Positions 5,025-22,485 of a stretch of 64,000 nt of DNA are shown here, one piece after another. The stretch is from an uncultured bacterium (GTDB lineage Bacteria > Krumholzibacteriota > Krumholzibacteriia > LZORAL124-64-63), in assembly GCA_963732385.1 (NCBI GenBank), contig CAVSZB010000006.1, positions 82,357 through 146,356 of the forward strand, read 5' to 3'. Both the position numbers and the translations under genes were made by a program. A model generated the notes under the pieces. It saw only the letters and a program-made list of their open reading frames with translations. It was not told the origin of the DNA and did not search any database. The stretch's first letter is position 1; each line of letters begins with the position of its first letter.

Positions 5025-6465
5025 CTAGGACCGACGCAGCCGCGCGCGCTCGTCATGGATGTCGCCGTGGTAGTCGCCCACCGGCCGGTGCACGCCCGGC
5101 TCGTGGGTCGCCGCCGGCAGGACCGTCTTGACCTCGGCCATGGCGACCATCGGCAGATAGCGCACGAACAGCAGGAACAACGTGAAGAACAGGCCGACGC
5201 TGCCGGCGAGGGTGAGCAGATCCACCCAGGTCGGGATGAACATGCCCCAGCTCGAGGGCAGGAAGTCGCGATGGAGCGAGGTGACGATGATCACGAACCG
5301 TTCGAACCACATGCCGACGTTGACGCACATGACGACCGCCATCGTCACGACCAGGTTCGTGCGCAGCTTCTTCGCCCAGAACAGCTGCGGCGCCAGCACG
5401 TTGCAGGTGATCATCGTCCAGTAGGCCCAGGCGTACGGCCCGAGCGCGCGGTTCAGGAAGACGAACCGCTCGTACCCGTTGCCGCTGTACCAGGCGATGA
5501 AGAACTCGGTCGCGTAGGCGTAGCCGACCATCGTCCCGGTCGCCAGGATGATTTTGTTCATGCTCTCGATGTGATAGAGCGTGACGATGTCCTTCAGCCC
5601 GAAGAACTGCCGGCACGGCACCATCAGCGTTACGACCATGGCGAACCCGCCGAAGATGGCGCCCGCCACGAAGTAGGGCGGGAAGATCGTCGTGTGCCAG
5701 CCGGGGATGGACGACGTGGCGAAGTCGAAGCTGACGACAGAGTGCACGCTCAGCACCAGCGGCGTGGCCAGGCCGGCCAGCAGCAGGTACGCCTTCTCGT
5801 AGCGGTGCCAGTGGCGGTGCGAGCCGCGCCAGCCCAGGGCCAGGAAGCCGTAGATGAGGCGGCGCCACTTCGTGCGGGCGCGATCGCGCAGCGTGGCCAG
5901 GTCGGGCACCATGCCGGTGTACCAGAACATCAGCGACACGACCGCATACGTACCGACCGCGAAGACATCCCACAGCAGCGGGCTGCGGAAATTCGGCCAG
6001 ACCGCGTTGAAGTTGGGCAGCGGCAGCAGCCACCAGACCAGCCAGATGCGCCCCACGTGGATGGTCGGGAAGATCAGGGCGCAGATGACGGCGAAGATCG
6101 TCATCGCCTCGGCGAAGCGGTTGATGCTCGTGCGCCACCTCTGGCGCAGCAGGAAAAGGATGGCCGAGATCAACGTGCCGGCGTGGCCGATGCCGACCCA
6201 GAAGACGAAGTTCGTGATGTCGAAGGCCCAGCCGACCGGGATGTTCAGCCCCCACACGCCGATTCCCTTGAGGACCAGCAGCGCGATCATGGCGAACAGG
6301 ACGCCGGTCAGCGCCAGCGAGATCGCGAAGGCGATATACCAGCCGCGTGGCGGGCGCGGACGCTCCACGATCGAGCACACCTTGTCGGTGATCGTCGTGA
6401 AGGTGTTGTCGCCCAGGATCAGCGGCGTGGGCCGCGTCGGGTCCTCGAACGTGTTGTCGATCTCG

Positions 6466-6485
<20 letters not shown>
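5025..6485 (-). CDS. actC: Alternative complex III quinol-binding subunit ActC (NrfD family)
   Basis: [58 protein letters not shown]. Confidence 0.95.
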
Positions 6486-10196
<3,711 letters not shown>

Positions 10197-10756: not shown

Positions 10757-12859
10757 ATGTCCGACCGCGCCACCCCCCTCACCCCTGCGCGGATCCGCCG
10801 CGATGGCAATGCCCTGCAGCGCGAAACCTCGCTCTACCTGCGTCAGCACGCCCACAATCCGCTCGACTGGCGGCCGTGGGGTGACGAGGCGCTCGAGCGC
10901 GCGCGGGTGGGCCGGCTGCCGATCTTCCTGTCGATCGGCTACGCGTCGTGCCACTGGTGCCATGTCATGGAGCGCGAGGTGTTCGAGAACGACGAAGTGG
11001 CGGCGTACCTGAACGCGCATTTCGTCTGCATCAAGGTCGACCGCGAGGAACGTCCCGACCTCGACGCCGTCTACATGGACGCCGTCCAGGGGATGACCGG
11101 CGCGGGCGGCTGGCCGCTGTCGGTCTTCCTGACCGCCGACGCGCAGCCGATCTACGGCGGCACGTACTTCCCGGCGCCGCAGTTCCTCGAACTGGCGCGC
11201 CGGGTGCGCGAAGTGTACGTGACGCGGACCGGCGAGGTGGAGGAGCAGGCTGCCGCCGTCGCGGCGCGCCTGCTGGCGGGCCCGACCTTCGCCGACGAAG
11301 CGGCCGGCGGCGTCATCGACGCCGAGCTGATCGACGCCGTCGCCGCGCGCGCGGTCGCGCTGTTCGACCCGGAGTGGGGCGGTTTCACCGGCCCGGCGAA
11401 GTTTCCTGTCCCGCCGCGCTGGCAGTTCCTGCTGCACCACCACCGCCGCACCGGCGACGTGCGGTCGGCCCGCCTGCTTGGCCTGACCCTCACCACGATG
11501 GCCTCGGGCGGCATCTACGACCACGTCGGCGGCGGCTTCCACCGCTACGCCACCGATGCGGCGTGGCTCGTGCCGCACTTCGAGAAGATGCTCTACGACA
11601 ACGCCCTCCTGGCGAGCCTCTACCTCGAGGCCGGCCTGGTCCTGCAGCAGCCGCTGCTGCTGGCGGTCGCCCGCGACACGCTCGCCTTCCTGGTGCGGGA
11701 GATGAGCGGCCCCGAAGGGGGCTTCTACGCCAGCTTCGATGCCGACAGTGGCGGCCTGGAGGGGAGCTACTACGTCTGGACGCCCGACGACCTCTCCCTC
11801 GTGGCCGGACCGGAGGACGGGCCGGCGCTGGCCGGCCTGCTCGGCGTGACCGCAGCCGGCAACTTCGCCGACGGCGCGAGCGTGCTGACCCGCCGCGCCG
11901 ACCTCGCCGAACTGGCCGCGCGCCACGGTCGCGACGAGGCGGAGATCGCCGCCCTCTTCAACGAATATCGCGATGAACTGCGCGACTATCGCGACCGTCG
12001 CGAAGGTCCCACCCTCGACACCAAGGTGATCACCGCCTGGAACGGCCTGGCCATCTCCGCCCTGGCCCAGGCGTACGGCGCCACCGGCGAGCCGGCCTGG
12101 CGCATCGCCGCCGAGCGCGCCGCCGACTGGCTCGAACAGGCCCACCGCCGCCCCGACGGCCGCCTCCTGCGTGCCGGCACCGACGGCCCCGCCACCGGCG
12201 ACGGCATTCTCGAAGACTACGCCTTCCTCGCCGTCGGCCTGCTCGACCTCTACCAGGCCACCGGCGATGAGTCGCGCCTGCGTCGCGCCCTCGAGCTGAT
12301 CGACATCACCCGGCGCGACTTCGCCGACCCCGCCGGAGGCTGCTGGCTGACCGCCGCCGCCGCCGAAGTCCCCCTCGGCCGCAAGACCGAGCTGTTCGAC
12401 AGCGTGACCCCCTCCGGCAATTCCGCCTTCCTCCAGGCCCTGCTGCGCGCCGCCGCCCTGACCGGCCGCGATGAGTACCGGGAAGAGGCCGCCCGCACGA
12501 TTGCGCGCTACGCCGTCATCATGGAAAAAGCGGGGCTGGAGATGGCCTGGTGGTTCGATGCGGCTTTGCGGCTGAACGGACCGTTCTATGACGTGGTGGT
12601 GGCCGGCGATCCCGCCGACGCGGCGACGCGCGCGCTGACCGCCACGGTCACCCGCCTGCTGCCGCCGCATGTGACGCTGGCGCGGGTGTCGGCGGCGGGA
12701 GCGTCTGCGGATCTCGCTGCCCTGCTGCCCGCCGCGACGGGCAAGGTCGCGCGGGATGGCGGGCCGTGCGCCTACGTGTGCGAGCACGGCGCCTGCCTCG
12801 AACCGGCCACGGACCCGGACGCGTTGCGCGAGCAGTTGCTGGCGGGGTGGGCGAGGTAG
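10757..12859 (+). CDS. Thioredoxin-domain / six-hairpin protein (YyaL/SPATA20 family)
   Basis: SLYLRQHAHNP, SIGYASCHWCHVME, KVDREERPD, GGGFHRY, PHFEKMLYDNA. Confidence 0.93.
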   Translation: MSDRATPLTPARIRRDGNALQRETSLYLRQHAHNPLDWRPWGDEALERARVGRLPIFLSIGYASCHWCHVMEREVFENDEVAAYLNAHFVCIKVDREERPDLDAVYMDAVQGMTGAGGWPLSVFLTADAQPIYGGTYFPAPQFLELARRVREVYVTRTGEVEEQAAAVAARLLAGPTFADEAAGGVIDAELIDAVAARAVALFDPEWGGFTGPAKFPVPPRWQFLLHHHRRTGDVRSARLLGLTLTTMASGGIYDHVGGGFHRYATDAAWLVPHFEKMLYDNALLASLYLEAGLVLQQPLLLAVARDTLAFLVREMSGPEGGFYASFDADSGGLEGSYYVWTPDDLSLVAGPEDGPALAGLLGVTAAGNFADGASVLTRRADLAELAARHGRDEAEIAALFNEYRDELRDYRDRREGPTLDTKVITAWNGLAISALAQAYGATGEPAWRIAAERAADWLEQAHRRPDGRLLRAGTDGPATGDGILEDYAFLAVGLLDLYQATGDESRLRRALELIDITRRDFADPAGGCWLTAAAAEVPLGRKTELFDSVTPSGNSAFLQALLRAAALTGRDEYREEAARTIARYAVIMEKAGLEMAWWFDAALRLNGPFYDVVVAGDPADAATRALTATVTRLLPPHVTLARVSAAGASADLAALLPAATGKVARDGGPCAYVCEHGACLEPATDPDALREQLLAGWAR
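12294..12360 (+). repeat. Direct repeat copy 1 (internal yyaL segment duplicated at 19067-19133)
   Basis: 67-bp match to 19067-19133 with 2 mismatches by eye. Confidence 0.9.
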
Positions 12860-13236
12860 GGGGGGCGTTCGCTGTCGCAACGCGGTGTGAAATCCTCCCG
12901 GTCGACCGGGGCCGGTTGTTACGCCCAGGCACCGCCCTTCTCGACGCGCAGGTCCCAGGCGGGGTACAATGCAAGGAGGCGGCGGGATGCGTCAGGCGAC
13001 CGCCAGGGGCGAGGCGCCTGTTCGTCCTCCCCGCCATGCGTTCAGCCGACGAGTCGGGGTGCACGCCATGTACGGGCTGGGGATGGGAAGCGGGGGTTTG
13101 CATGGGGACGCACAGTTCGCGCGGTGGCGGCCCGGTTGCCCGTGGCGTCGATTCGCCTGCGTCTCGGCGGGCACGCGAGCCATGGAGCGCGGGCCCATGA
13201 ACGCTGCGGACAGGCGGCCGGCGCCGGAGGAACCGG

Positions 13237-15039
13237 ATGTCGGGCGCTGACCTCGCGGATCGCGGCCCCGGTCCGGCCCCTCCATCCCGCCGCACCAGTC
13301 TCGGCCGGTTGCTGCGCTATCTGAAGCCGCACTGGCGTCGGCAGGTCGTCACGCTGGGCTTCCTGGTCTCCGGAACTGGCGTCTCGCTGCTGGTCCCGCT
13401 GCTGATCAGGCGGATCGTGGACGTGGCGCTGCCCGCGCGGGACGGGGCGCAGCTCCTGCAACTCGTGGGCATGATGGCGGGCATCCATCTGCTGTCCGCC
13501 CTGCTGCTGCTCGCCACCGATTACTACTTCCTGCGCGTGAGCAACGCCATCGTGCTCGATCTGCGACGCGACATGCACGACCACCTGCTGCGTCTGTCGC
13601 TCGATTATTTCGAGGGGAACAAGGCCGGCCAGACGATGGCGCGGATCATGGGCGACGTGGACTCCGTGCAGATGCTGACCACGAACGCCTTCCTGATGCT
13701 GCTCACCGACTGCTTCTCCGTCCTGCTGATGCTGGGATTCATGCTGTACCTGAGCTGGCCCCTGACGCTGGTGAGCCTGGTGACGCTCGCGTTGCTGGTG
13801 TTGATCACGCGGATCTTCAGCCATCGTGTGCTGGCGTCGGCGCGGCTGAACCGCGAGAAGTACGCGGCGATTTCCGAGGACCTGCAGGAGACGATCGCGG
13901 GCGTGAAGGAGATCAAGGTGTTCGCGCGCGAACCGCTGCGCAGCGCGTTCTTCGCCGGGCGCCTGGCGGAATTCGCCCGGGCGAGCATCCGGCTCGGGAT
14001 GTGGGGCTCGGCGTCCCGGCTGCTGAGCGTGCTCGTGATTTCGGTCGGTCCCGTGCTCGTCTATTACTACGGCGGCCGGAGCGTGATCGGTGGCACGGCC
14101 ACCATCGGCCTGCTCGTGGCCTTCGTCATCTACCTCGAGCGGATGTACGAGTCGCTGCATCGCCTCTCGTACCTGAACATCCAGGTCCAGTCGGCGCTGG
14201 GGGCGGTGGAGAGGATCTTCTCGCTGCTGGACGCGCCGCCGACCGTCCTGGATTCGCCGACCGCGACGGACCTGCCCGCTCCGCGGGGCGAGATCGAGCT
14301 GCAGGGAGTGACCTTCCGGTACGTCCCGGACCGGCCGCCCGCCCTGAAGGACGCCAGCCTGCGCGTGTGCGCGGGCGAACGGGTGGCTCTCGTGGGACGC
14401 AGCGGTTCGGGCAAGAGCACGGTGGCCAATCTCGTCTGCCGCTTCCACGACGCGCAGGAGGGGCGCGTCCTGCTGGACGGGCGGGATGTGCGTAACCTGC
14501 GCCTGGCCGATCTGCGCGCGGTGATCGGCATCGTGCCGCAGGAGGCGTTCTTCTTCCATGCCAGCGTCGCCGAGAATCTGCGCTTCGCCCGGCCGGAGGC
14601 GACGCAGGCGGAGCTCGAGGCCGCCACGCGCCAGGCCGACGCCCACGATTTCATTCTCGCCATGCCTGCCGGCTACGACACGATCATCGGCGAGCGCGGC
14701 AGCCGGCTCAGCGGGGGACAGCGCCAGCGTCTCGCCATAGCGCGCGTCCTGCTGCGGGACCCCCGGATCGTGATCCTCGACGAAGCCACCTCCGCACTGG
14801 ACGCCGAGACCGAACGGCAGGTCAGGGTGGCGATGGGGCGCCTCGCGCTCGGCCGTACCACCCTCGTCATCTCGCACCGTCTCTCCACCGTCGCCGACGC
14901 CGACCGGATCCTCGTGCTGGACGATGGCGAGATCGTCGAGGCGGGCGATCATCGCACCCTGATGGCGCAGGGAGGCGTGTACAGGCGGCTCTGCGATCAG
15001 CAGGCGCAGGGGCAAGCCGTCGTCGGCGAAGATTCCTGA
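13237..15039 (+). CDS. ABC exporter, fused permease/ATPase (MsbA-like; no C39 peptidase domain evident)
   Basis: N-terminal TM domain; Walker A GRSGSGKST, LSGGQRQR, ILDEATSALD. Confidence 0.93.
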   Translation: MSGADLADRGPGPAPPSRRTSLGRLLRYLKPHWRRQVVTLGFLVSGTGVSLLVPLLIRRIVDVALPARDGAQLLQLVGMMAGIHLLSALLLLATDYYFLRVSNAIVLDLRRDMHDHLLRLSLDYFEGNKAGQTMARIMGDVDSVQMLTTNAFLMLLTDCFSVLLMLGFMLYLSWPLTLVSLVTLALLVLITRIFSHRVLASARLNREKYAAISEDLQETIAGVKEIKVFAREPLRSAFFAGRLAEFARASIRLGMWGSASRLLSVLVISVGPVLVYYYGGRSVIGGTATIGLLVAFVIYLERMYESLHRLSYLNIQVQSALGAVERIFSLLDAPPTVLDSPTATDLPAPRGEIELQGVTFRYVPDRPPALKDASLRVCAGERVALVGRSGSGKSTVANLVCRFHDAQEGRVLLDGRDVRNLRLADLRAVIGIVPQEAFFFHASVAENLRFARPEATQAELEAATRQADAHDFILAMPAGYDTIIGERGSRLSGGQRQRLAIARVLLRDPRIVILDEATSALDAETERQVRVAMGRLALGRTTLVISHRLSTVADADRILVLDDGEIVEAGDHRTLMAQGGVYRRLCDQQAQGQAVVGEDS

Positions 15040-15057
15040 CGAATGGCGAACCGGCGG

Positions 15058-16092
15058 CTACGTCTTCAGCGCGGTGCGATACAGGCAGAGCGGGACGGCA
15101 GCCCTGATGTCGCCGGTGTAGGCCAGCGCCGAGCCGCGGCAGCCGCCGCGGCAGTTGGGGTAGTTCTCGCAGCGGAGGCAGCGCCCGGCGATCTCGTCGC
15201 GCGCGAAATCAGCCATGACCGGCATGGCGGGGTCGGACCAGAGATCGGCGATGCGCGTCTGGCGGGTGTTGCCGACCAGAAAGTCCGGGTGGACCAGGGC
15301 TGTGCACGGGTAGACGTCGCCGTTGGCCCGCAGATAGAGAGTGCGCGTCCCCGCGCTGCACTTGTGGAAGCCGAAATCCGGTGGCACAGGACCGAACCCG
15401 ACGTCGAAGGAAATCAGGATGGACGGATCTTTTTGAGCCTGCTGGATGAAGGCGAGCAGGTCGGTCGCCTCCTCGGCGATGAGCAGACGCTGTCTGATCT
15501 GTTCCTGCTGGCCGCGGCCGGCCGGCGTGAAGCAGGAGAACCTGATACTGTCCACCCCCTCCCGTTTGCCCAGCGCGATCAGTTCGCCTGCGTCCGCAAG
15601 GTTTTCACGGCCCACCACGGAGGCCATGATCACGCGGGCGCCCTGGCTCTTCGCCGCGCGAATGCCCTGCAGGACAGCCTGGAACTCCGCGTCGCTCGCA
15701 CCGCGGATACGCCGGTTCAACTCCGGCGTGGAGCCGTCGAGGCTGACCTGGATGGTGCGGCAGCCGGCCTGGATCAGGCCTCGCGTCCGTTCGGGATCGA
15801 GCAGCACGCCGTTGGTCGTGATCGTGGAGTGGATCCCCTGCGCCCAGGCGTGCGCCGCCAGTTCCTCCAGGTCGCGCCGCAGGAGCGGCTCGCCGCCTGT
15901 CCAGCTGATCGTCCCGGCCCCCAGAGCGGCCAGGTCGTCGATGAGCCCTCGGCACTCGTCGGTGCCCATCTCGTCGCGCGGACGTTCAGCGGTGGCGCTG
16001 TAGCAGTGGACGCAGCGCAGGTTGCACAGGTTGGTGATTTCCCAGCCGACGATTTCCGGCTTTTGCGAACGGACGGCCTCGGGATCTGACAT
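15058..16092 (-). CDS. Radical SAM/SPASM enzyme (PqqE/MftC/NirJ-like), putative second maturase
   Basis: CNLRCVHC, TGGEPLL; SPASM CSAG..GDVYPC..CLRC..CRGGCR..C. Confidence 0.9.
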   Translation of the reverse strand: MSDPEAVRSQKPEIVGWEITNLCNLRCVHCYSATAERPRDEMGTDECRGLIDDLAALGAGTISWTGGEPLLRRDLEELAAHAWAQGIHSTITTNGVLLDPERTRGLIQAGCRTIQVSLDGSTPELNRRIRGASDAEFQAVLQGIRAAKSQGARVIMASVVGRENLADAGELIALGKREGVDSIRFSCFTPAGRGQQEQIRQRLLIAEEATDLLAFIQQAQKDPSILISFDVGFGPVPPDFGFHKCSAGTRTLYLRANGDVYPCTALVHPDFLVGNTRQTRIADLWSDPAMPVMADFARDEIAGRCLRCENYPNCRGGCRGSALAYTGDIRAAVPLCLYRTALKT

Positions 16093-16128
16093 GTCAGGTT
16101 CCTCGTCTGCGCGGGGTGATGGGCGCGG

Positions 16129-17454
16129 CTATGTCTGTGCGGTCATGGTTGCGCGGTAGGCGAGTTCCAGCATGTCCCCGAGATTGTACTTCCAGGGGGG
16201 GCACACGCCCTGGCTCGCGTCCGGCTGGGCCAGTCCCCGGGCCGGGCAGCCGCCCATGCAGACCGGAGCGTGGGCGCAGGAGCGGCAGCCGCTCAACGCC
16301 AGAGGTTGCCAGGCTTGGTAAGCCTCGCAGTTCGCCTGTTGCGCGGCGCTCAGCGTCTCGGAGAAGACGCTGCCGATCGACCGGTCGGCGTCCAGGGACA
16401 GCTCCTCCCAGCACTTGAACAGGTATCCATTGGGTCCCACGGAATAGTAGCCGTCGGCGATGGCGCCGCACATCCCGCCAGATGCGATTTGGGGACGGTC
16501 GATCTTTTCGATGCCATTGGCCGCGAGTTGCCCGTACAGCCGCACCAGGATGCGGGCGAATTCTGCGTTGTCATGGCAGCGGTCACGGATGTCGGCGCAG
16601 ACCGCCCCGGACGGGAAGATTGGCGCGAAGGTCACCCTGACCTTGTCGAGCACGCCGCGCTCCTGCAGAACGGTCACGGCCGCCGGTGCGCAATCCACGT
16701 TGTCCTTGTCGATGTTGATGCGCACGTCGATGTCCAGGATCCCGGCCGCCGCACAGAGATTGTCGATGATGCGCGCGAACGTTCCCTGCCCGTTGTGCAG
16801 CTTGCGACGCCGGTCATGCATCTCCTGGGAGCCGTCGAGCGTGATCTGGGCGCGCGTGATCCCCAACTCGCGCAGGCGCTGCGCCATGGCGACATCCAGC
16901 AGATATCCGTTCGTGATGATCTGGCCGGGATGCAGGTGCACCTGGTGTTTCTCGGCCAGTTCGAGGAACCGTTGCTGCAGCCTTTCGATCAGGGGGAAGC
17001 AGAGCGTCGGCTCACCGCCGAACCAGCAGAGGCGCAGGCCGTCGGCCCGGTACAGATGGCGATCGGTGAACGCCAGGAGCGCGGTCTGGGTCTCGTCGCT
17101 CATGCGGACGCTGGACCGGGATTCGAAGCAGTAGTCGCAGCCGAAGTTGCAGGCCAGCGTGGGCGCGATCGTCAGCGTGAGGACGGACCCCTCCAGCCTG
17201 TCCGTGCGGGCCCTCATTTCCAGGGCCGTTCGCTGATCGACTGCGTCCGGGATGAGAAAGCCGCCGTCGCGCAGGCACTGGAAATATTCCGCGGCCTGGC
17301 CCGCAAACGTCGCGTTGGGATTCGCCAGCACGTCCTGCACGAGCGGATGATTCTCGCCCTCGATTTCGGCGATGGCTCCCGAATAGGAGTTGTAGCCGAG
17401 CACGATCCGGCCATCGAGGATCGGAAAGAAGAAATTGAAGGGGGACGGTTTCAT
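16129..17454 (-). CDS. Radical SAM/SPASM peptide maturase with N-terminal RRE-like extension
   Basis: About 90-aa N-terminal extension (GYNSYSGAI..LRDGGFLI), CNFGCDYC, WFGGEP; SPASM CGA..GYLFKC..CRSC..CMGGCP..C. Confidence 0.9.
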   Translation of the reverse strand: MKPSPFNFFFPILDGRIVLGYNSYSGAIAEIEGENHPLVQDVLANPNATFAGQAAEYFQCLRDGGFLIPDAVDQRTALEMRARTDRLEGSVLTLTIAPTLACNFGCDYCFESRSSVRMSDETQTALLAFTDRHLYRADGLRLCWFGGEPTLCFPLIERLQQRFLELAEKHQVHLHPGQIITNGYLLDVAMAQRLRELGITRAQITLDGSQEMHDRRRKLHNGQGTFARIIDNLCAAAGILDIDVRINIDKDNVDCAPAAVTVLQERGVLDKVRVTFAPIFPSGAVCADIRDRCHDNAEFARILVRLYGQLAANGIEKIDRPQIASGGMCGAIADGYYSVGPNGYLFKCWEELSLDADRSIGSVFSETLSAAQQANCEAYQAWQPLALSGCRSCAHAPVCMGGCPARGLAQPDASQGVCPPWKYNLGDMLELAYRATMTAQT

Positions 17455-17506
17455 GCTTTCCTCTGCGGAAGTGAAGCCGGCAGGCCGGCCGCAGGCGACA
17501 ACAAAG

Positions 17507-17543
17507 ACCCGTGCGCCAACCGGCACGCGGTCGGCGCACGGGT
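17507..17543 (-). terminator. 16-bp stem-loop between precursor and first maturase (attenuator or mRNA-stabilising hairpin)
   Basis: ACCCGTGCGCCAACCG (17507-22) / CGGTCGGCGCACGGGT (17528-43); the single mismatch is a G-U pair on the - strand. Confidence 0.65.
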
Positions 17544-17563
17544 GAACGGCGGGCTACCGCATC

Positions 17564-17662
17564 CTAACGGTAGGTCCCGCAGAGAATCCGCAGCGGCGAC
17601 TTGTACGTGCAGGGCATCGGCTTGGACACGAGGCCAAAGCCAGGCAGCGAGATGAGCTTCAT
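17564..17662 (-). CDS. Putative RiPP precursor peptide, 32 aa: MKLISLPGFGLVSKPMPCTYKSPLRILCGTYR
   Basis: Translated by hand; AAAAGGAG RBS 8 nt upstream; directly upstream of and co-oriented with two rSAM/SPASM genes; below the ORF-track size cutoff. Confidence 0.75.
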   Translation of the reverse strand: MKLISLPGFGLVSKPMPCTYKSPLRILCGTYR

Positions 17663-17847
17663 TGCATGGTCTCCTTTTCGCGGAAGTGAAATGTTGTGGC
17701 GGACGAACGCGCGGCCTATTGGCAGCCGCCGTCCATCCTGCCCCTGCTGCGCGCGTGCCTTCGTCCCGAGCCGCCAGGATACGGATCATGGGACAAAAAT
17801 AATCAGGAAACGACACACGCGGAGTCCTGATTTCTTCATTAAGTAAT

Positions 17848-17877
17848 ATTGTATTTTCCCTTCCGATTGACTGTCAA
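17848..17877 (-). promoter_or_regulatory. Sigma70-like promoter facing precursor/rSAM operon
   Basis: - strand TTGACA-N18-TACAAT in an AT-rich patch; the -35 lies in the palindrome ATTGAC-T-GTCAAT (17866-17878). Confidence 0.6.
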
Positions 17878-17958
17878 TATCAAAACTTGTCGGTTCATTC
17901 CCGGGGCCTTGCTTCGGATGTGCGCAAGAGCGGCCCCGGCATATCTGGAGGCATCGCC

Positions 17959-18069
17959 ATGACACATCGCTCCGGAACTGTCGGTATCCTGATCCTGGCG
18001 CTGGTCGGCGCGTTGATCGCGCTGGCGGTGCTGACGACGAGTCGAGCGGGGCGGGCCGGAATATGCTAG
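17959..18069 (+). CDS. Small hydrophobic peptide (36 aa, single TM-like)
   Basis: GGAGG RBS at 17947-51; MTHRSGTVGILILALVGALIALAVLTTSRAGRAGIC. Confidence 0.4.
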   Translation: MTHRSGTVGILILALVGALIALAVLTTSRAGRAGIC

Positions 18070-18260
18070 AATCGATGCTCCTCGCACGAGGGCCTGGCCG
18101 GAGCCGGAGGGGCGTCGCCCCGCCCGCGCACCGGAGTCTGGCCCATCAACGCTGACCTGATCCTCGCGCTTTCACCTGCCGGCGTGCGGCGGGGGCTGCC
18201 CGGTCGTGGTCCCGACGGGCGGCCGCTGCCGTGGGCGCCGGCGTCACCAGGGGGATCCCG

Positions 18261-19067
18261 ATGAGACGAACCTGCCGGTTCACCGCCGCCGTCTGGCCGC
18301 TGCTGATCACCATCCTGCTGCTCGCCCCGGGCTGCAGCTCCGATCGTCCGCTCGATCCGGCCGCAGCGCTGCCGGCGGCCGACGGGAGCTCCACGACGTT
18401 GTCGGCGACTCCGGTCGTACCCGTCGATACCCTGACGTTCGTCGAGACCTTCGACAACAAGAGCAACGTGGGGGACTGGTCCTACTTCACGACCCACGAT
18501 GCGACCATCGAGATGGACGGCGGCAATCCGGGCTGGTACCTGCACGATGACTCCGTCGTCTCGTTCGCCCCCCATCCCGGATCCGGTCTGGGCGTGACCT
18601 CGGTCTTTGCCGGGAACTACCGGGAGCAGCGGGTCCTCAGCGTGGGCATCGACCTGCGGAGCTTCGATTACGACCTGAACGTCTCGTCCCGCTATCTCAC
18701 GCTCCTGGTGATGAATGATGGCGGCACGCCCGACGACGCGAGCGATGACCGGGGGGCGTACTTCATCGGTCCCGTCAAGGTTCCGTCGAAGTATGTGGAG
18801 ATGAAGTCCGGCGCCGACAAGAACGCGGCCGGCTGGGTCTCCTACGCATTCGAGATCGCGTCGCAGTCCAACGCGTATCCGGCGGGGTGGACGGCGTTCA
18901 GCTATGCCACCGGGGCCTCGGCCAAGTCGCGCGATTCCTGGCGACAGCTGATGGAGAGCGTTTCCTACATCCAGTTCTGGTACGGCGATCCGACGCAGTA
19001 CTACCTCCTGGACAGCTATGACCTGGGGCTGGACAACCCCCGGATCAGCCGGGAAGTGGCCAGGTAA
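18261..19067 (+). CDS. Hypothetical lipoprotein, beta-rich
   Basis: Signal peptide ending APGC; coding-like codon usage. Confidence 0.7.
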   Translation: MRRTCRFTAAVWPLLITILLLAPGCSSDRPLDPAAALPAADGSSTTLSATPVVPVDTLTFVETFDNKSNVGDWSYFTTHDATIEMDGGNPGWYLHDDSVVSFAPHPGSGLGVTSVFAGNYREQRVLSVGIDLRSFDYDLNVSSRYLTLLVMNDGGTPDDASDDRGAYFIGPVKVPSKYVEMKSGADKNAAGWVSYAFEIASQSNAYPAGWTAFSYATGASAKSRDSWRQLMESVSYIQFWYGDPTQYYLLDSYDLGLDNPRISREVAR

Positions 19068-19147
19068 GCTGATCGACATCGCCCGGCGCGACTTCGCCGA
19101 CCCCGCCGGCGGCTGCTGGCTGACCGCCGCCGCTCTGACCGGCCGCG
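19067..19147 (+). repeat. Direct repeat copy 2: internally deleted yyaL remnant
   Basis: 19067-19133 matches 12294-12360; 19128-19147 matches 12451-12470 (1 mismatch). Confidence 0.88.
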
Positions 19148-19191
19148 GCGGCCCCATCCGGAGCCGCCGCCGTCTCTTTGACCGGCCGGGC

Positions 19192-22100
19192 CTATTGCGG
19201 CCGCTTCACCCGCACCGGGTCTGCCGGCTGCGGCAGGATCTTCACCTCCTGCGTCGGCAGGAGGTCGAGGGCGGCCTTCACGGCGGCCTCGAGCTGCGCG
19301 TCACGGCCGGCGGCCGCGTGCTGCGGGGTCTGTTCCACCTCGAGGTCGGGCGGGATTCCCTGGCCCTCGACCGCCCAGTTCCCGTCGGTGTCGTAGAAGC
19401 CGCCGCGCGGGGCGGTCATGAAGCCGCCGTCGACGAGATCGGGCACATCCCAGATGCCGACGAGACCGCCCCAGGTCCGCGTGCCGACGAGCGGCCCGAG
19501 GCCCAGCTTGCGGAACATGTACGGCAACATGTCGCCGCCGGAGCCGGCCATCTCGTTGATGATCATCACCTTGGGGCCCCAGATGGCGGCATTGGGTGCG
19601 GTGAAGGGCTGCTGCGCGCCCACGGGGTTGCTGAAGAAGCCGAGCAGGCGGCGTCCCATGACGTCCACCATGTAGTCCGCGATCGAGCCGCCGTGGTTGA
19701 AGCGCTCGTCGATGATGGCGCCCTGCTTGTCCTGCTGCGCGAAGTAGTAACGGGTGAAATTCGTGTAGCCGCCCTCGCCGGTGTCGGGCACCCAGACGTA
19801 GGCCAGCCGGCCGCCCGACAGCTCGTCCACCCTGCGGCGGTTGCCCTCGATCCAGGCGCGCTGGCGCAGCGCCGTCTCGCTGGCCACCGGCACCACGGTC
19901 ACCTGGCGGGCGTCCTTGTGTTCGGGCTTCGCGTTGAGCGTGAGGACGGTCTGGCGGTCAGCGGTGCGGTCGAAGAGGCTGTACACGCTCACGGCGGACG
20001 TGAGCTCGACCCCGTTGACGGCCAGCAGGTAGTCGCCCTCGCGCGCGTCGATGCCCGGGCCGCTCAGCGGGGCGCGCAGCTGCGGGTTCCAGTTCTCGCC
20101 GGCGTAGATCCGGCGGAAGCGGAAGCGGCCGTTGGCCACCTCGAAGTCGCAGCCGAGCAGGCCGACCGGCACCTTTTCGACCTCCGGCTCGTCGCCGCCG
20201 CCGGTGAACGAGTGGCCGATGCAGGTCTCGCCGCCCAGGATGTCGAGCAGGTAGGTGAGGTCGGCGCGGTGCCGCACGCTGTCCACCCACGGCGCGTAGG
20301 CGCGCCAGGCCCAGTCCAGGTCGAGGCCGTGGACGTTCTTCACGTAGAAGTAGTCGCGCTGGAAGCGCCACGCCTCGCGGAAAATCTGCTTCCACTCGGC
20401 CGCCGGGTCCACCTTGAGGCGCAGGCCGGCCAGGTTGAGCGCGCCTTCACCCGGCTTCGGCTCGCCGGAGGCGTCGGCGAGGCAGTACTTCTTGCCGTCG
20501 GGGCTGTAGAGCAGCTTCTTGCCGTCGGCCGAGAGCCGGAAGCCCGTCACGCCCTCGATCAGCTGCTTCGCCTCGCGCTTCTTCAGGTCGTAGCGGTGCA
20601 GCGTCAGCCCCTCCTGATTGGGCACCTCCTCCGTATAGAATAAGAATCCCGCCTCGCCCGCCGTCAGATCGGCGAAACGGCGCGCAGGCACGTCGAGGGC
20701 GACGATGCGCTGGTCGAGGCCGTCGAAGTCGATCCTCACCCTGACCGGTTCCGCAGCTTTGGCGTCCTCGCCGTCGTTCCCGTCGCCCTTCCTGTCGTGC
20801 TTCGCCGCGTCCTTCTTTCCGTCCTTCCCGTCCTTCGCCTGGTCGGAGGCCGGTTCCTCATCGTCGCTCTCGGGCTTCAGGGGCGATGGCTCGTCCTTCG
20901 CCAGCACGGCGAGGTAGATCGAGCGGTTCAACGGCTGGTTGAAGGAGCTCATGTCGAGCCAGCCGACGTTCAGGCCGTAGTCGGTGCTGGCCAAAAACGC
21001 CAGGTATTTGCCGGAGGCGTCCCACGCGGGGTGGAGCGCGTCGGAGAGGCCGTCGGTGATGCGCGTGGACCGGCCGCTGTCGAGAGAGTGGACGAAGACC
21101 GCGTTGAACTGGTTGGGCAGGCGGCGGCTGTAGGCGAGCCAGCGCGAATCGGGCGACCAGGCCGGGGCGATGAACCGGTCGGGCGGTGCGAAACCCTCGT
21201 CGTCGATGCGCGTCAGCTTGCCGGTGGCGACCTCCACGAACCACAGCGCGCGGTTGGCGTCGCCGAAGGCGAGGCAGCGTGAATCCGGCGACCAGCGCGG
21301 CGTATAGAAGAATGTCGGGTCGGGGATCGGGATGACCCGCTTCCCGTTGCCGAACTGGTCGGCGATCACCAGCTGGTACTCGCCGCCCGCGTCCGAGAAC
21401 CACGATACCGAGCGGCCATCGGGCGACCACGCGGGGGCGCGGTCGGCCGCCCCGGGATCGGCCGAGAGGTTGCGCGCGTCGCCCTTCTCGGCGGGCACGG
21501 TGAAGATCTCGCCGCGCGCCTCGAACACGGCCCGCTTGCCCGCGGGGGAAAGGGCGAAGTCGGTGATCAGCTTGGCGGCGTCGACCCAGTGCGGCCGTGC
21601 CCAGGGGAAGTCGCCGTGCAGCGTCACCGGCAGCCGGCGCGGTTCTGAGCCTGCGGCGTCGAGCGCGTAGAGCCAGCCGCCGTTCTCGAACACGAGGCGG
21701 CCGGCGCCCGCCGCGAGGCGCTTGCAATCGAACTCCTTGAAGTGCGTTCGCTGCCGCAGCTCCTGCGTGACGGTGTCGTACGACCAGACGTTGTTGGCGA
21801 AGTCACGGTCGCTCAGGAAGAAGACCGTATCGCCGAGCCAGGCGGGCGAAACGTCGTTGCTCCCCTCCCAGGGCAGCTTCGTCACCGCGAGCGACGCGAG
21901 ATCGACGATGCGGATCGGCTGGGCCTGCCCGCCGCGGTAGTTGCGCCATTCCGTCTCCCAGGGGGAGACCATCCGGTAGGCGATGCGGCCGCCGTCGGGC
22001 GCGTAGGCCCCCTCGGAAACGCGCGGGATCGGCAGCGGCTCGGGCAGGCCGCCCCCCTCGAGCGCGACCGTCCACAGCTTCGGCTCCGGCCGGGGCACGC

Positions 22101-22485
22101 AGTCCCGGCCCGAGGCGAAGAGGACGCGCCTGCCGTCCACGGTCCAGCCGCAAACGACGTCGTCGCCGGGGTGCCAGGTCAGCCGTCGCGGCTCGCCGCC
22201 GTCGACACCGATGACGTAGACGTCGGCGTTGCCGTCGTACTCGCCGGTGAACGCGATCAGCCGGCCGTCCGGCGAGAAGCGCGGATCGGTCTCGGCGCCG
22301 GGAAACGTGGTCAGGCGGCGCGCCTCGCCGCCGTCGCGCCCCACGATCCAGATGTCGTCGGCGTGGACGAAGGCGACCTGCGTAGCGCTCACGTCGGGCT
22401 GGCGCAGCAGGCGCGCCTCCCCGGCGGCGGGCGGCGAGCCGGGAACCAGGGCGAACGGCAGCAGGAACAAGAGCGCGCATCTCAT
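19192..22485 (-). CDS. Tricorn-like S41 protease (PD40 propellers, PDZ, catalytic domain)
   Basis: Signal peptide; PxFSPDG/PAWSPD repeats; DERFNHGG, AGSGGD, GTRTWGG. Confidence 0.93.
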   Translation of the reverse strand: MRCALLFLLPFALVPGSPPAAGEARLLRQPDVSATQVAFVHADDIWIVGRDGGEARRLTTFPGAETDPRFSPDGRLIAFTGEYDGNADVYVIGVDGGEPRRLTWHPGDDVVCGWTVDGRRVLFASGRDCVPRPEPKLWTVALEGGGLPEPLPIPRVSEGAYAPDGGRIAYRMVSPWETEWRNYRGGQAQPIRIVDLASLAVTKLPWEGSNDVSPAWLGDTVFFLSDRDFANNVWSYDTVTQELRQRTHFKEFDCKRLAAGAGRLVFENGGWLYALDAAGSEPRRLPVTLHGDFPWARPHWVDAAKLITDFALSPAGKRAVFEARGEIFTVPAEKGDARNLSADPGAADRAPAWSPDGRSVSWFSDAGGEYQLVIADQFGNGKRVIPIPDPTFFYTPRWSPDSRCLAFGDANRALWFVEVATGKLTRIDDEGFAPPDRFIAPAWSPDSRWLAYSRRLPNQFNAVFVHSLDSGRSTRITDGLSDALHPAWDASGKYLAFLASTDYGLNVGWLDMSSFNQPLNRSIYLAVLAKDEPSPLKPESDDEEPASDQAKDGKDGKKDAAKHDRKGDGNDGEDAKAAEPVRVRIDFDGLDQRIVALDVPARRFADLTAGEAGFLFYTEEVPNQEGLTLHRYDLKKREAKQLIEGVTGFRLSADGKKLLYSPDGKKYCLADASGEPKPGEGALNLAGLRLKVDPAAEWKQIFREAWRFQRDYFYVKNVHGLDLDWAWRAYAPWVDSVRHRADLTYLLDILGGETCIGHSFTGGGDEPEVEKVPVGLLGCDFEVANGRFRFRRIYAGENWNPQLRAPLSGPGIDAREGDYLLAVNGVELTSAVSVYSLFDRTADRQTVLTLNAKPEHKDARQVTVVPVASETALRQRAWIEGNRRRVDELSGGRLAYVWVPDTGEGGYTNFTRYYFAQQDKQGAIIDERFNHGGSIADYMVDVMGRRLLGFFSNPVGAQQPFTAPNAAIWGPKVMIINEMAGSGGDMLPYMFRKLGLGPLVGTRTWGGLVGIWDVPDLVDGGFMTAPRGGFYDTDGNWAVEGQGIPPDLEVEQTPQHAAAGRDAQLEAAVKAALDLLPTQEVKILPQPADPVRVKRPQ

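Follow-up and report, generated by a model that had tools for sequence, protein, structure and literature searches.

The described radical SAM enzymes closest to the system reported here modify peptides in several different ways. CrpC, a member of TIGR04463, forms ranthionine-type links in a C-x-x-Q/D-repeat protein (CAVD, CAGM, PCAGD and CPLV are given), and its cluster cysteines are 104/108/111, 333/352/403 and 390/393/399/422 (PMC13692751). StsB, an MftC-like protein in sequence, is likewise a thioether former (PMC10288494). EpeE epimerises Val and Ile by abstraction of the alpha-hydrogen, a hydrogen being returned from Cys223, and slow turnover persists in the C223S variant (PMC13012085). 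OspD also epimerises Ile and Val with a conserved Cys (PMC13012085, PMC9811515), and according to a review the epimerisation sites of the known radical epimerases are as yet unpredictable (PMC9811515). Spliceases are associated with the motif X-Y-G (PMC10849128, PMC9811515), and the cyclopropyl synthases TvgB and TigE possess a strictly conserved GYW motif (PMC10878394).

In this study we analysed a stretch of 64,000 nucleotides (the window) from an uncultured bacterium, in which a very short open reading frame (ORF) precedes the genes of two radical SAM/SPASM proteins, termed enzyme 1 and enzyme 2. Together with their homologues they represent a conserved, unnamed modified-peptide family from uncultured bacteria.

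The precursor gene and its surroundings

Read on the minus strand, positions 17564-17662 encode a peptide with C18, Y20, K21, C28, Y31 and R32 and without Cys in its N-terminal half. The preliminary description had taken it for an unannotated precursor whose N-terminal half is leader-like and Cys-free and which is served by two enzymes. The translation and the homologues bear this out, the peptide being a RiPP precursor encoded with two radical SAM/SPASM enzymes. The gene is confirmed by its ribosome-binding site, its host-like codon use (GC3 of 0.875 compared to 0.85 and 0.86 for the enzyme genes), a promoter-like site and 90 distinct homologues, which adjoin the same enzyme pair where the contigs extend far enough, and we regard it as almost certain that the ORF is the real precursor of a two-radical-SAM cassette. 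In the closest homologue (L085) 23 residues are the same as in the window precursor, and 7 of their codons differ synonymously; Tyr20 is replaced by Leu. Public copies of the precursor are named "hypothetical protein" and nothing further. Pfam and NCBIfam hold no family for the precursor or for 27 homologues; two marginal Pfam matches of single members (E 0.13-0.15) were disregarded.

The sigma-70-like site (Table 1) is located about 185 nt upstream of the ORF. Sites of that quality occur twice in 6 kb, compared to 0.5 expected, and the pattern TTGAC-N17-19-TA...T was found upstream of nine out of ten homologous precursors examined. Folding of the hairpin at 17543-17507 gives a z value of -2.8, and 3 of 200 shuffled sequences fold equally well. 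We infer that this hairpin would yield precursor transcript in excess of enzyme transcript. An Rfam search of window positions 12000-20000 found nothing.

Table 1. Features of the cassette, numbered along the window.
Feature	Position	Strand	Remarks
Sigma-70-like promoter site, TTGACA-18 nt-TACAAT	17848..17877	-	11/12, consensus match alone
Ribosome-binding site AGGAG	17671..17675	-	8 nt ahead of the precursor ATG
Precursor peptide gene, 32 aa + TAG	17564..17662	-	leader approximately residues 1-15, then core
C18-x-x-K21, first predicted thioether site (Cys to +3)	17600..17611	-	chemistry predicted
L24-R25-I26-L27-C28, Ile motif	17579..17593	-	predicted target of enzyme 2
C28-x-x-Y31, second predicted thioether site	17570..17581	-	chemistry predicted
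16-pair hairpin followed by a T-rich tail	17507..17543	-	in the 109-nt gap between precursor and enzyme 1
Enzyme 1, RRE-like N-terminus + radical SAM + seven-Cys SPASM, 441 aa	16129..17454	-	
Enzyme 2, radical SAM/SPASM without RRE, 344 aa	15058..16092	-	36 nt after enzyme 1

The three genes lie within about 2.6 kb, and the genome to which the window belongs harbours a single copy of the cassette. In a comparison of 74 loci no gene family of the window flanks was found again, and neighbour families were shared by close kin only; transporters, proteases and regulators likewise do not accompany the cassette outside close kin in these loci. The ABC transporter at 13237-15039, which is encoded convergently on the opposite strand, was considered as a part of the cassette and rejected, as it does not recur across the 74 loci; one other locus (L002) has different ABC genes nearby. 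A 1097-aa tricorn-like secreted protease is encoded at 19192-22485, 1.5 kb upstream of the precursor, and is not found beside homologous cassettes. Further away, at 5854-10196, cytochrome c and molybdopterin/Fe-S subunits resemble an alternative complex III operon, as judged from the translations only.

Distribution of the cassette and its two enzymes

The search with enzyme 1 yielded 80 genome loci and 78 metagenome loci. A first precursor set was derived from the 44 loci, window included, with an enzyme 1 of about 40% identity or above, those with lower identity being omitted, and precursor ORFs were chosen by ribosome-binding site, leader start and presence of Cys. Thirty-six of these loci carry a precursor (46 ORFs, 44 distinct), and most of the remaining eight are truncated by contig ends. 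Among 285 genomes from the phylum containing the Zixibacteria, 47 carry enzyme 2, so that the cassette is common in Zixibacteria-type genomes; in the window's own phylum 2 genomes out of 208 carry it, some of the genomes being incomplete. Of the 49 genome loci reached through enzyme 2, 45 hold a precursor and 47 have enzyme 1 adjoining enzyme 2; the two exceptions are cut by contig ends. The pooled set comprises 91 distinct precursors, which form 45 clusters at 60% identity. At least 120 clusters of enzyme 2-like proteins share 44% identity or more with enzyme 2 (best 120 of the 298 with E <1e-60).

The location of the precursor varies: between one and four copies are found per locus, and they may lie ahead of, between or downstream of the two enzyme genes. 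In L001, for instance, three copies each have their own promoter-like site. Several loci deviate from the common organization. L097, L099, L206 and L208 have a tandem pair of enzyme 1 paralogues ahead of one enzyme 2 and as many as four distinct precursors, L226 and L229 have precursors with MLF or MIF leaders and longer Cys-rich cores, and in L216 (3993) and L222 (4031) the Ile motif described below is followed by a long Pro/Glu-rich tail with a distal Cys.

Enzyme 1 scores best with TIGR04463 (270 bits, cut-off 525) and TIGR04334 (249 bits, cut-off 600), and thus does not reach the equivalog cut-off of either; the CefB, FlmE/OhkG, geopeptide and PapB models follow, every score lying below its cut-off. 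In the structure model (pLDDT 93.7) the N-terminus forms three strands and three helices, which is the arrangement of an RRE, and the best fold match is CteB. The cluster cysteines are 102/106/109, 329/348/403 and 390/393/399/418. Those of the SPASM part (C329/C348/C403 and C390/C393/C399/C418) are conserved in 37/37 members of the enzyme 1 clade, the first auxiliary cluster being of the three-Cys type. The catalytic-proximity residues are F, F, I/V, T, W and E in enzyme 1 and F, F, T, S, H and Q in CteB, so that two of the six are equal when mapped by our own numbering offset (definition from PMC10288494). In a tree of 129 out of 176 enzyme 1 sequences, in which those without a second enzyme were sampled every second one, the proteins partnered with enzyme 2 form a single group (support 0.86), and those partnered with a splicease likewise form one group. 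Many groupings are common to the enzyme 1 and enzyme 2 trees, as judged by eye. The enzyme 1 proteins of L226 and L229 have retained the C-x3-C-x2-C motif and lost the aromatic residues of the SAM loop.

Enzyme 2 lacks an RRE and has seven SPASM cysteines for two clusters, the first auxiliary cluster again being of the three-Cys type. It scores best with the MftC, AhbC/D, NirJ2 and StsB models, at 147-173 bits, all far below the cut-offs (MftC 173 bits, cut-off 265; StsB 147 bits, cut-off 625). The structure model (pLDDT 95.1) matches SuiB, anSME, SkfB and CteB with Z values of 26-28 and EpeE with a Z value of 20; at the sequence level the match to EpeE covers 115 residues (E about 2e-7).

In addition to its 3+7 cluster ligands, enzyme 2 possesses a Cys at alignment column 186, at the end of the strand 182-187. 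It is present in 146 of 147 aligned proteins, a set that includes duplicates, and in 71 of 73 locus-derived copies; spliceases have Gln there. The column aligns two residues past the Arg of the matching MoaA strand. We assume that it faces the SAM pocket and that it is positionally similar to the catalytic Cys of HygY. The window enzyme 2 is the sole one among the 147 with Ser at this column, and it has Cys one place further on: codons 186-187 (15532-15537) encode Ser-Cys, while the family has Cys-Gly or Cys-Cys, including the usual Cys-Gly in a protein 83% identical to the window enzyme (P0008). This shift of the beta-6 Cys may be a compensating change, may alter the activity or may be a sequence error. 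The enzyme 2 proteins of L234 and L239 have no Cys at column 186, yet their precursors retain the Ile discussed below.

Conserved signals in the precursors

The preliminary description had emphasised a motif, C-(G)-T-Y-[K/R], that is present twice. In the genome, which has 9,538 short ORFs, only the window precursor has two copies of C-G?-T-Y-[KR], although the pattern was derived from this same sequence. A core unit of about ten residues is indeed repeated in other members, as in the core PHYIICSING-PYKIICSKY of L003 or the three F/Y-P-I-I-C units of L090, but the proposed register occurs in just 1 of 91 precursors. The two tyrosines also fare differently across homologues, the position of Y20 varying and that of Y31 not varying freely. 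Among the 19 close relatives that share the C-x9-C spacing of the window precursor, Tyr is found at first-Cys+2 only in the window precursor itself, which speaks against Y20 as a modification site, and 13 of the 91 precursors are free of Tyr altogether. In these 19 sequences the residue at first-Cys+3 is Lys (11), Asn (5), Met (2) or Asp (1), and that at last-Cys+3 is Tyr (11), Phe (2), His, Trp, Asn or Leu (1 each), with none in two cases. Therefore K21, and not Y20, is the counterpart of Y31.

The same position stands out in the whole family. Over 206 cysteines the ten most common residues at Cys+3 are Tyr (53), Lys (44), Phe (19), Leu (19), Arg (13), Asn (12), Asp (11), Ile (9), Met (8) and Val (5). 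A residue with a beta-methylene group occupies Cys+3 in 187 of the 202 cases in which the chain extends that far, compared to a mean of 110 and a maximum of 131 in shuffles with Cys kept fixed, and in 92 of 99 cases over the 45 clusters at 60% identity (shuffle mean 51, maximum 69). Gly, Ala or Pro is found there once in 202, and at the other offsets from -4 to +5 the share of beta-methylene residues is 27-67%. Correspondingly, C-x-x-aromatic is present in 66 of 91 precursors compared to 21.6 after shuffling. As the beta-methylene class was set post hoc, after the residues were known, and the sequences are kin, these shuffle contrasts overstate the signal.

The best-conserved precursor residue is Ile26, which did not figure in the preliminary description. 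It belongs to the Ile motif [FYWHL]-x-I-[ILMVS]-[CPS], which occurs in 81 of 91 precursors: in 44/44 of the set from which it was derived (shuffle mean 1.8) and in 37 of the 47 found later. Nine of the ten precursors without a match retain Ile at the equivalent place, as judged by eye, and the tenth resembles a chance ORF. In the 44 precursors the position Ile-2 is occupied by F/Y/H/W (34) or by Leu (10, including the window), and Ile-1 by Y, P, L, F, R or K. In roughly half of the members Ile+2 is Pro instead of Cys; a link between Ile and Cys can therefore not be general. In L003, L088, L090, L092, L093 and L094 the motif is repeated two or three times, one per ring.

Relatives of enzyme 1 also occur in cassettes of other types. 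In the Y-G cassettes (L084, L126, L127, L131, L133, L134, L137, L139, L141, L165, L166, L168 and L169) an enzyme 1 relative of 31-37% identity is accompanied by a second enzyme that scores best with TIGR04103 and TIGR03913, which we take to be splicease families. The enzymes of the Y-G cassettes reach 253-259 bits with TIGR04103 and about 243 bits with TIGR03913, whereas enzyme 2 has 78-92 and 116-121 bits, respectively, and falls outside their clade in the tree. Their precursors are Cys-rich and have a P-x-Y-G-[VI] end in 16/16 and the Ile motif in 0/16, with Phe (15), Tyr (13) and Lys (12) as the most common residues at Cys+3; Y-G and Ile cassettes occur together in five genomes. The products of the Y-G cassettes are likely thioether-stapled spliceotides, and the original spliceotide surveys may have covered these cassettes. 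In some precursors of L169 Cys flanks Y-G on both sides.

In L119 and L125 the enzyme 1 relatives (35-38% identity) have no second enzyme in the DNA examined, and the precursors have similar leaders (MK/RF[IV]V), C-[SP]-E-D cores with Asp at Cys+3 and no Ile motif. The core pattern at L119 (4721, minus strand) and L125 (6496-7689, minus strand) is C-x-x-C-[SP]-E-D-P-R-x-C, and L125 has five precursor copies on the strand opposite the enzyme. Because the Cys+3 signal is present in Y-G and Ile cassettes alike, it goes with enzyme 1, while the motif at the C-terminus differs according to the second enzyme (none, Tyr-Gly, Ile), a comparison of three lineages and not a statistical one. If the family combines two undescribed activities, as considered below, enzyme 1 would be a shared chassis on which the second enzyme and the C-terminal tag were swapped jointly (neither of them, a splicease and Tyr-Gly, or enzyme 2 and Ile).

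Other enzyme 1 relatives have different neighbours. In L129, L130 and L132 they adjoin precursors of 70-97 aa with Gly-Gly leaders and at least six Cys. Those of L136, L138, L142-L144, L147, L148 and L152 (about 32% identity), which are like those of Thermus records, are followed by MRW[IV][VL]KP peptides of 26-34 aa with C-x3-C-G-x-N cores. L167 (G209) has another SPASM enzyme pair, neither splicease-like nor enzyme 2-like, and an upstream ORF of 48 aa with one Cys.

Proposed mechanism, alternatives and comparison with known systems

In the mechanism that we propose, the leader would bind the predicted RRE of enzyme 1, and this step is very probable. Enzyme 1 would then connect Cys(i) to a non-alpha carbon of residue i+3 by a thioether, blind to the side chain past its beta-methylene. 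Judging from the precursor sequences it seems rather likely that enzyme 1 makes such non-alpha thioethers, with Lys, Tyr, Phe and Asn as acceptors here; it may instead form alpha-linkages. The Cys thioethers suggested in the preliminary description are thus likely, on the basis of the Cys+3 pattern and the family of enzyme 1, and so is its suggestion that the work is shared between both enzymes. Enzyme 2, having no RRE, would be directed to the Ile motif, and we consider it likely that this is its target. There it would abstract the alpha-hydrogen of Ile and return a hydrogen from the extra Cys on the opposite face, although epimerisation is a tentative assignment. This would yield a short hydrophobic peptide that carries between one and four small rings of four residues each, as well as one, two or three D-Ile; for the window we would expect the rings C18-K21 and C28-Y31 and D-allo-Ile26. 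As a whole, this picture of enzyme 1 stapling C18-K21 and C28-Y31 and enzyme 2 epimerising Ile26 to D-allo-Ile within the Ile motif is likewise put forward tentatively. Since no protease or exporter goes with the cassette, the host's own enzymes would have to remove the leader and export the peptide, unless it is retained in the cell; the strong separate promoter-like sites, too, agree with a peptide that is intracellular or exported by the host.

Instead of epimerising Ile, enzyme 2 could act oxidatively at the motif, by desaturation to dehydro-Ile, by a C-C link from an aromatic residue at Ile-2 or by a splicing-like rearrangement. This would suit the placement of the motif, which stands where spliceotide-type relatives have X-Y-G, as well as the frequent aromatic residue at Ile-2, the closeness of enzyme 2 to oxidative enzymes of the MftC/AhbD type and the occurrence of Ser variants at column 186; one Cys change makes the epimerase HygY a dehydrogenase, according to the title of a published paper. 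However, because of the ten precursors with Leu at Ile-2, the window's among them, and the variable Ile-1, neither a ring link nor a tyramine excision can be family-wide. Moreover, Y-G is found in 0/91 precursors, the GYW motif of the cyclopropyl synthases (PMC10878394) is missing from both window enzymes and from the alignments of both enzyme families, and the conserved extra Cys would be superfluous for oxidative outcomes. We therefore consider an oxidative enzyme 2 somewhat unlikely, and epimerisation the better fit to an invariant Ile with a variable neighbour and an extra Cys. That Cys would also be left unaccounted for if both enzymes formed thioethers, on different Cys, in alpha and beta positions or as obligate partners, with the Ile motif as an unmodified docking strand. 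The Cys+3 signature in cassettes without enzyme 2 and the repetition of the Ile motif once per ring, as is usual for modification sites, make this explanation unlikely, even though the sactisynthase StsB is MftC-like over its full length just as enzyme 2 is, the first auxiliary cluster of enzyme 2 is likewise of the three-Cys type and thuricin CD is a two-enzyme thioether system (PMC12093266). The SAM loop without aromatics in the enzyme 1 of L226 and L229 would fit a mostly scaffolding role there. As for the link between the Ile motif and enzyme 2, enzyme 1 could equally be the reader of the motif, since the enzyme 1 proteins partnered with enzyme 2 form one clade.

The reading given in the preliminary description, two equivalent C-(G)-T-Y-[K/R] sites shared between the enzymes with Tyr20 and Tyr31 cross-linked or excised, can draw on a repeat that is really present in the sequence and unique among the short ORFs of the genome, and on Tyr or another aromatic residue at last-Cys+3 in 15 of 19 close relatives. 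But with Tyr at first-Cys+2 in 1/19, the full motif in 1/91, Tyr-free precursors in 13/91 and Leu in L085, it is very unlikely. It is hardly credible that the ORF is a frame arisen by chance, or that it encodes a leader or regulatory peptide that stays unmodified, while the enzymes act elsewhere, for example in heme or cofactor synthesis. Enzyme 2 does score with the AhbC/D, NirJ and MftC models and a few of its public copies are auto-named heme synthase or MftC, but these scores lie far below the cut-offs, enzyme 1 has an RRE-like domain, and the precursor is conserved, occurs in up to four copies per locus and changes its position yet stays with the enzyme pair.

The papers searched, few of them from subscription journals, contain no description of the family, although supplementary enzyme lists may include these enzymes unremarked. 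The maturases FlmE/OhkG, Clo7bot and those of geopeptides were likewise not the subject of any paper found. It is possible, if doubtful, that the family constitutes a new RiPP class of uncultured sediment-type lineages with two undescribed activities, a side-chain-blind thioether synthase and a new lineage of SPASM epimerases. The former may link Cys(i) to C-beta(i+3) of Lys, Tyr, Phe, Leu, Arg and Asn, and the latter may be a third, independently arisen lineage with a Cys of strand 6 as hydrogen donor and a five-residue Ile tag. If so, the range of ranthionine acceptors, which are carboxylates and amides in the relatives characterised so far, would come to include Lys, Tyr, Phe and Leu, and a third radical epimerase family would come with a short, predictable recognition motif. 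A portable five-residue D-Ile tag and a general i,i+3 stapling enzyme would be useful in peptide engineering. The natural Cys-to-Ser variants of enzyme 2, including the shifted Cys of the window, bear on the idea of the hydrogen donor.

The RRE-less SPASM enzymes MftC and StsB are like enzyme 2 and give its top full-length scores, but their substrates differ from the precursors of this family: MftA ends with Val-Tyr, while the window precursor ends with Y-R and a V-Y end occurs in 0/44 precursors, and the StsA core CxCxC-x4-GxGxG is missing from the family precursors (definitions from PMC10288494). The substrates of EpeE/YydG and PoyD/OspD have, as here, a conserved core Ile in a hydrophobic, often aromatic-flanked context, and the enzymes a non-ligand Cys; however, EpeE has one auxiliary cluster and PoyD/OspD none, in contrast to the full two-cluster SPASM of enzyme 2 (PMC13012085, PMC9811515). 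In sequence the known radical epimerases are only remotely like enzyme 2, whose predicted epimerase role would here be paired with a thioether-type enzyme. Three-residue cyclophanes are formed at aromatic-x-x, with the aromatic residue two places before the acceptor. Such a cyclophane was rejected as the family-wide product on account of the Leu at Ile-2 in the window and the other precursors of the 10/44; it is possible for other members.

Spliceotides and Y-G cassettes have the same layout as the Ile cassettes, namely a short precursor, a related RRE enzyme and an RRE-less second SPASM enzyme. The Y-G cassettes also resemble them in leader and Cys+3 preference and have their second motif at the equivalent C-terminal place. 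In contrast to the spliceotides, whose precursors contain X-Y-G (PMC10849128, PMC9811515), this motif occurs in 0/91 precursors here, and enzyme 2 is not splicease-like. With the ranthipeptide type (CteB, PapB, CrpC) the cassette has in common the combination of RRE, radical SAM and seven-Cys SPASM as well as the adjoining Cys-containing precursor. CrpC/CrpA of Methanococcus voltae comes particularly near, as CrpC has nearly the same Cys numbering as enzyme 1 and its likely acceptor is also Cys+3, but CrpA is a large Cys-rich protein whereas the substrates of this family are peptides of 26-50 aa (PMC13692751). Further, Cys+3 is mostly Tyr, Lys, Phe, Leu, Arg or Asn here and Asp or Gln in the CrpC system, and only here is there a second enzyme. 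Judged by sequence, the system would work like a ranthipeptide with a tailoring partner, outside every named family tested.
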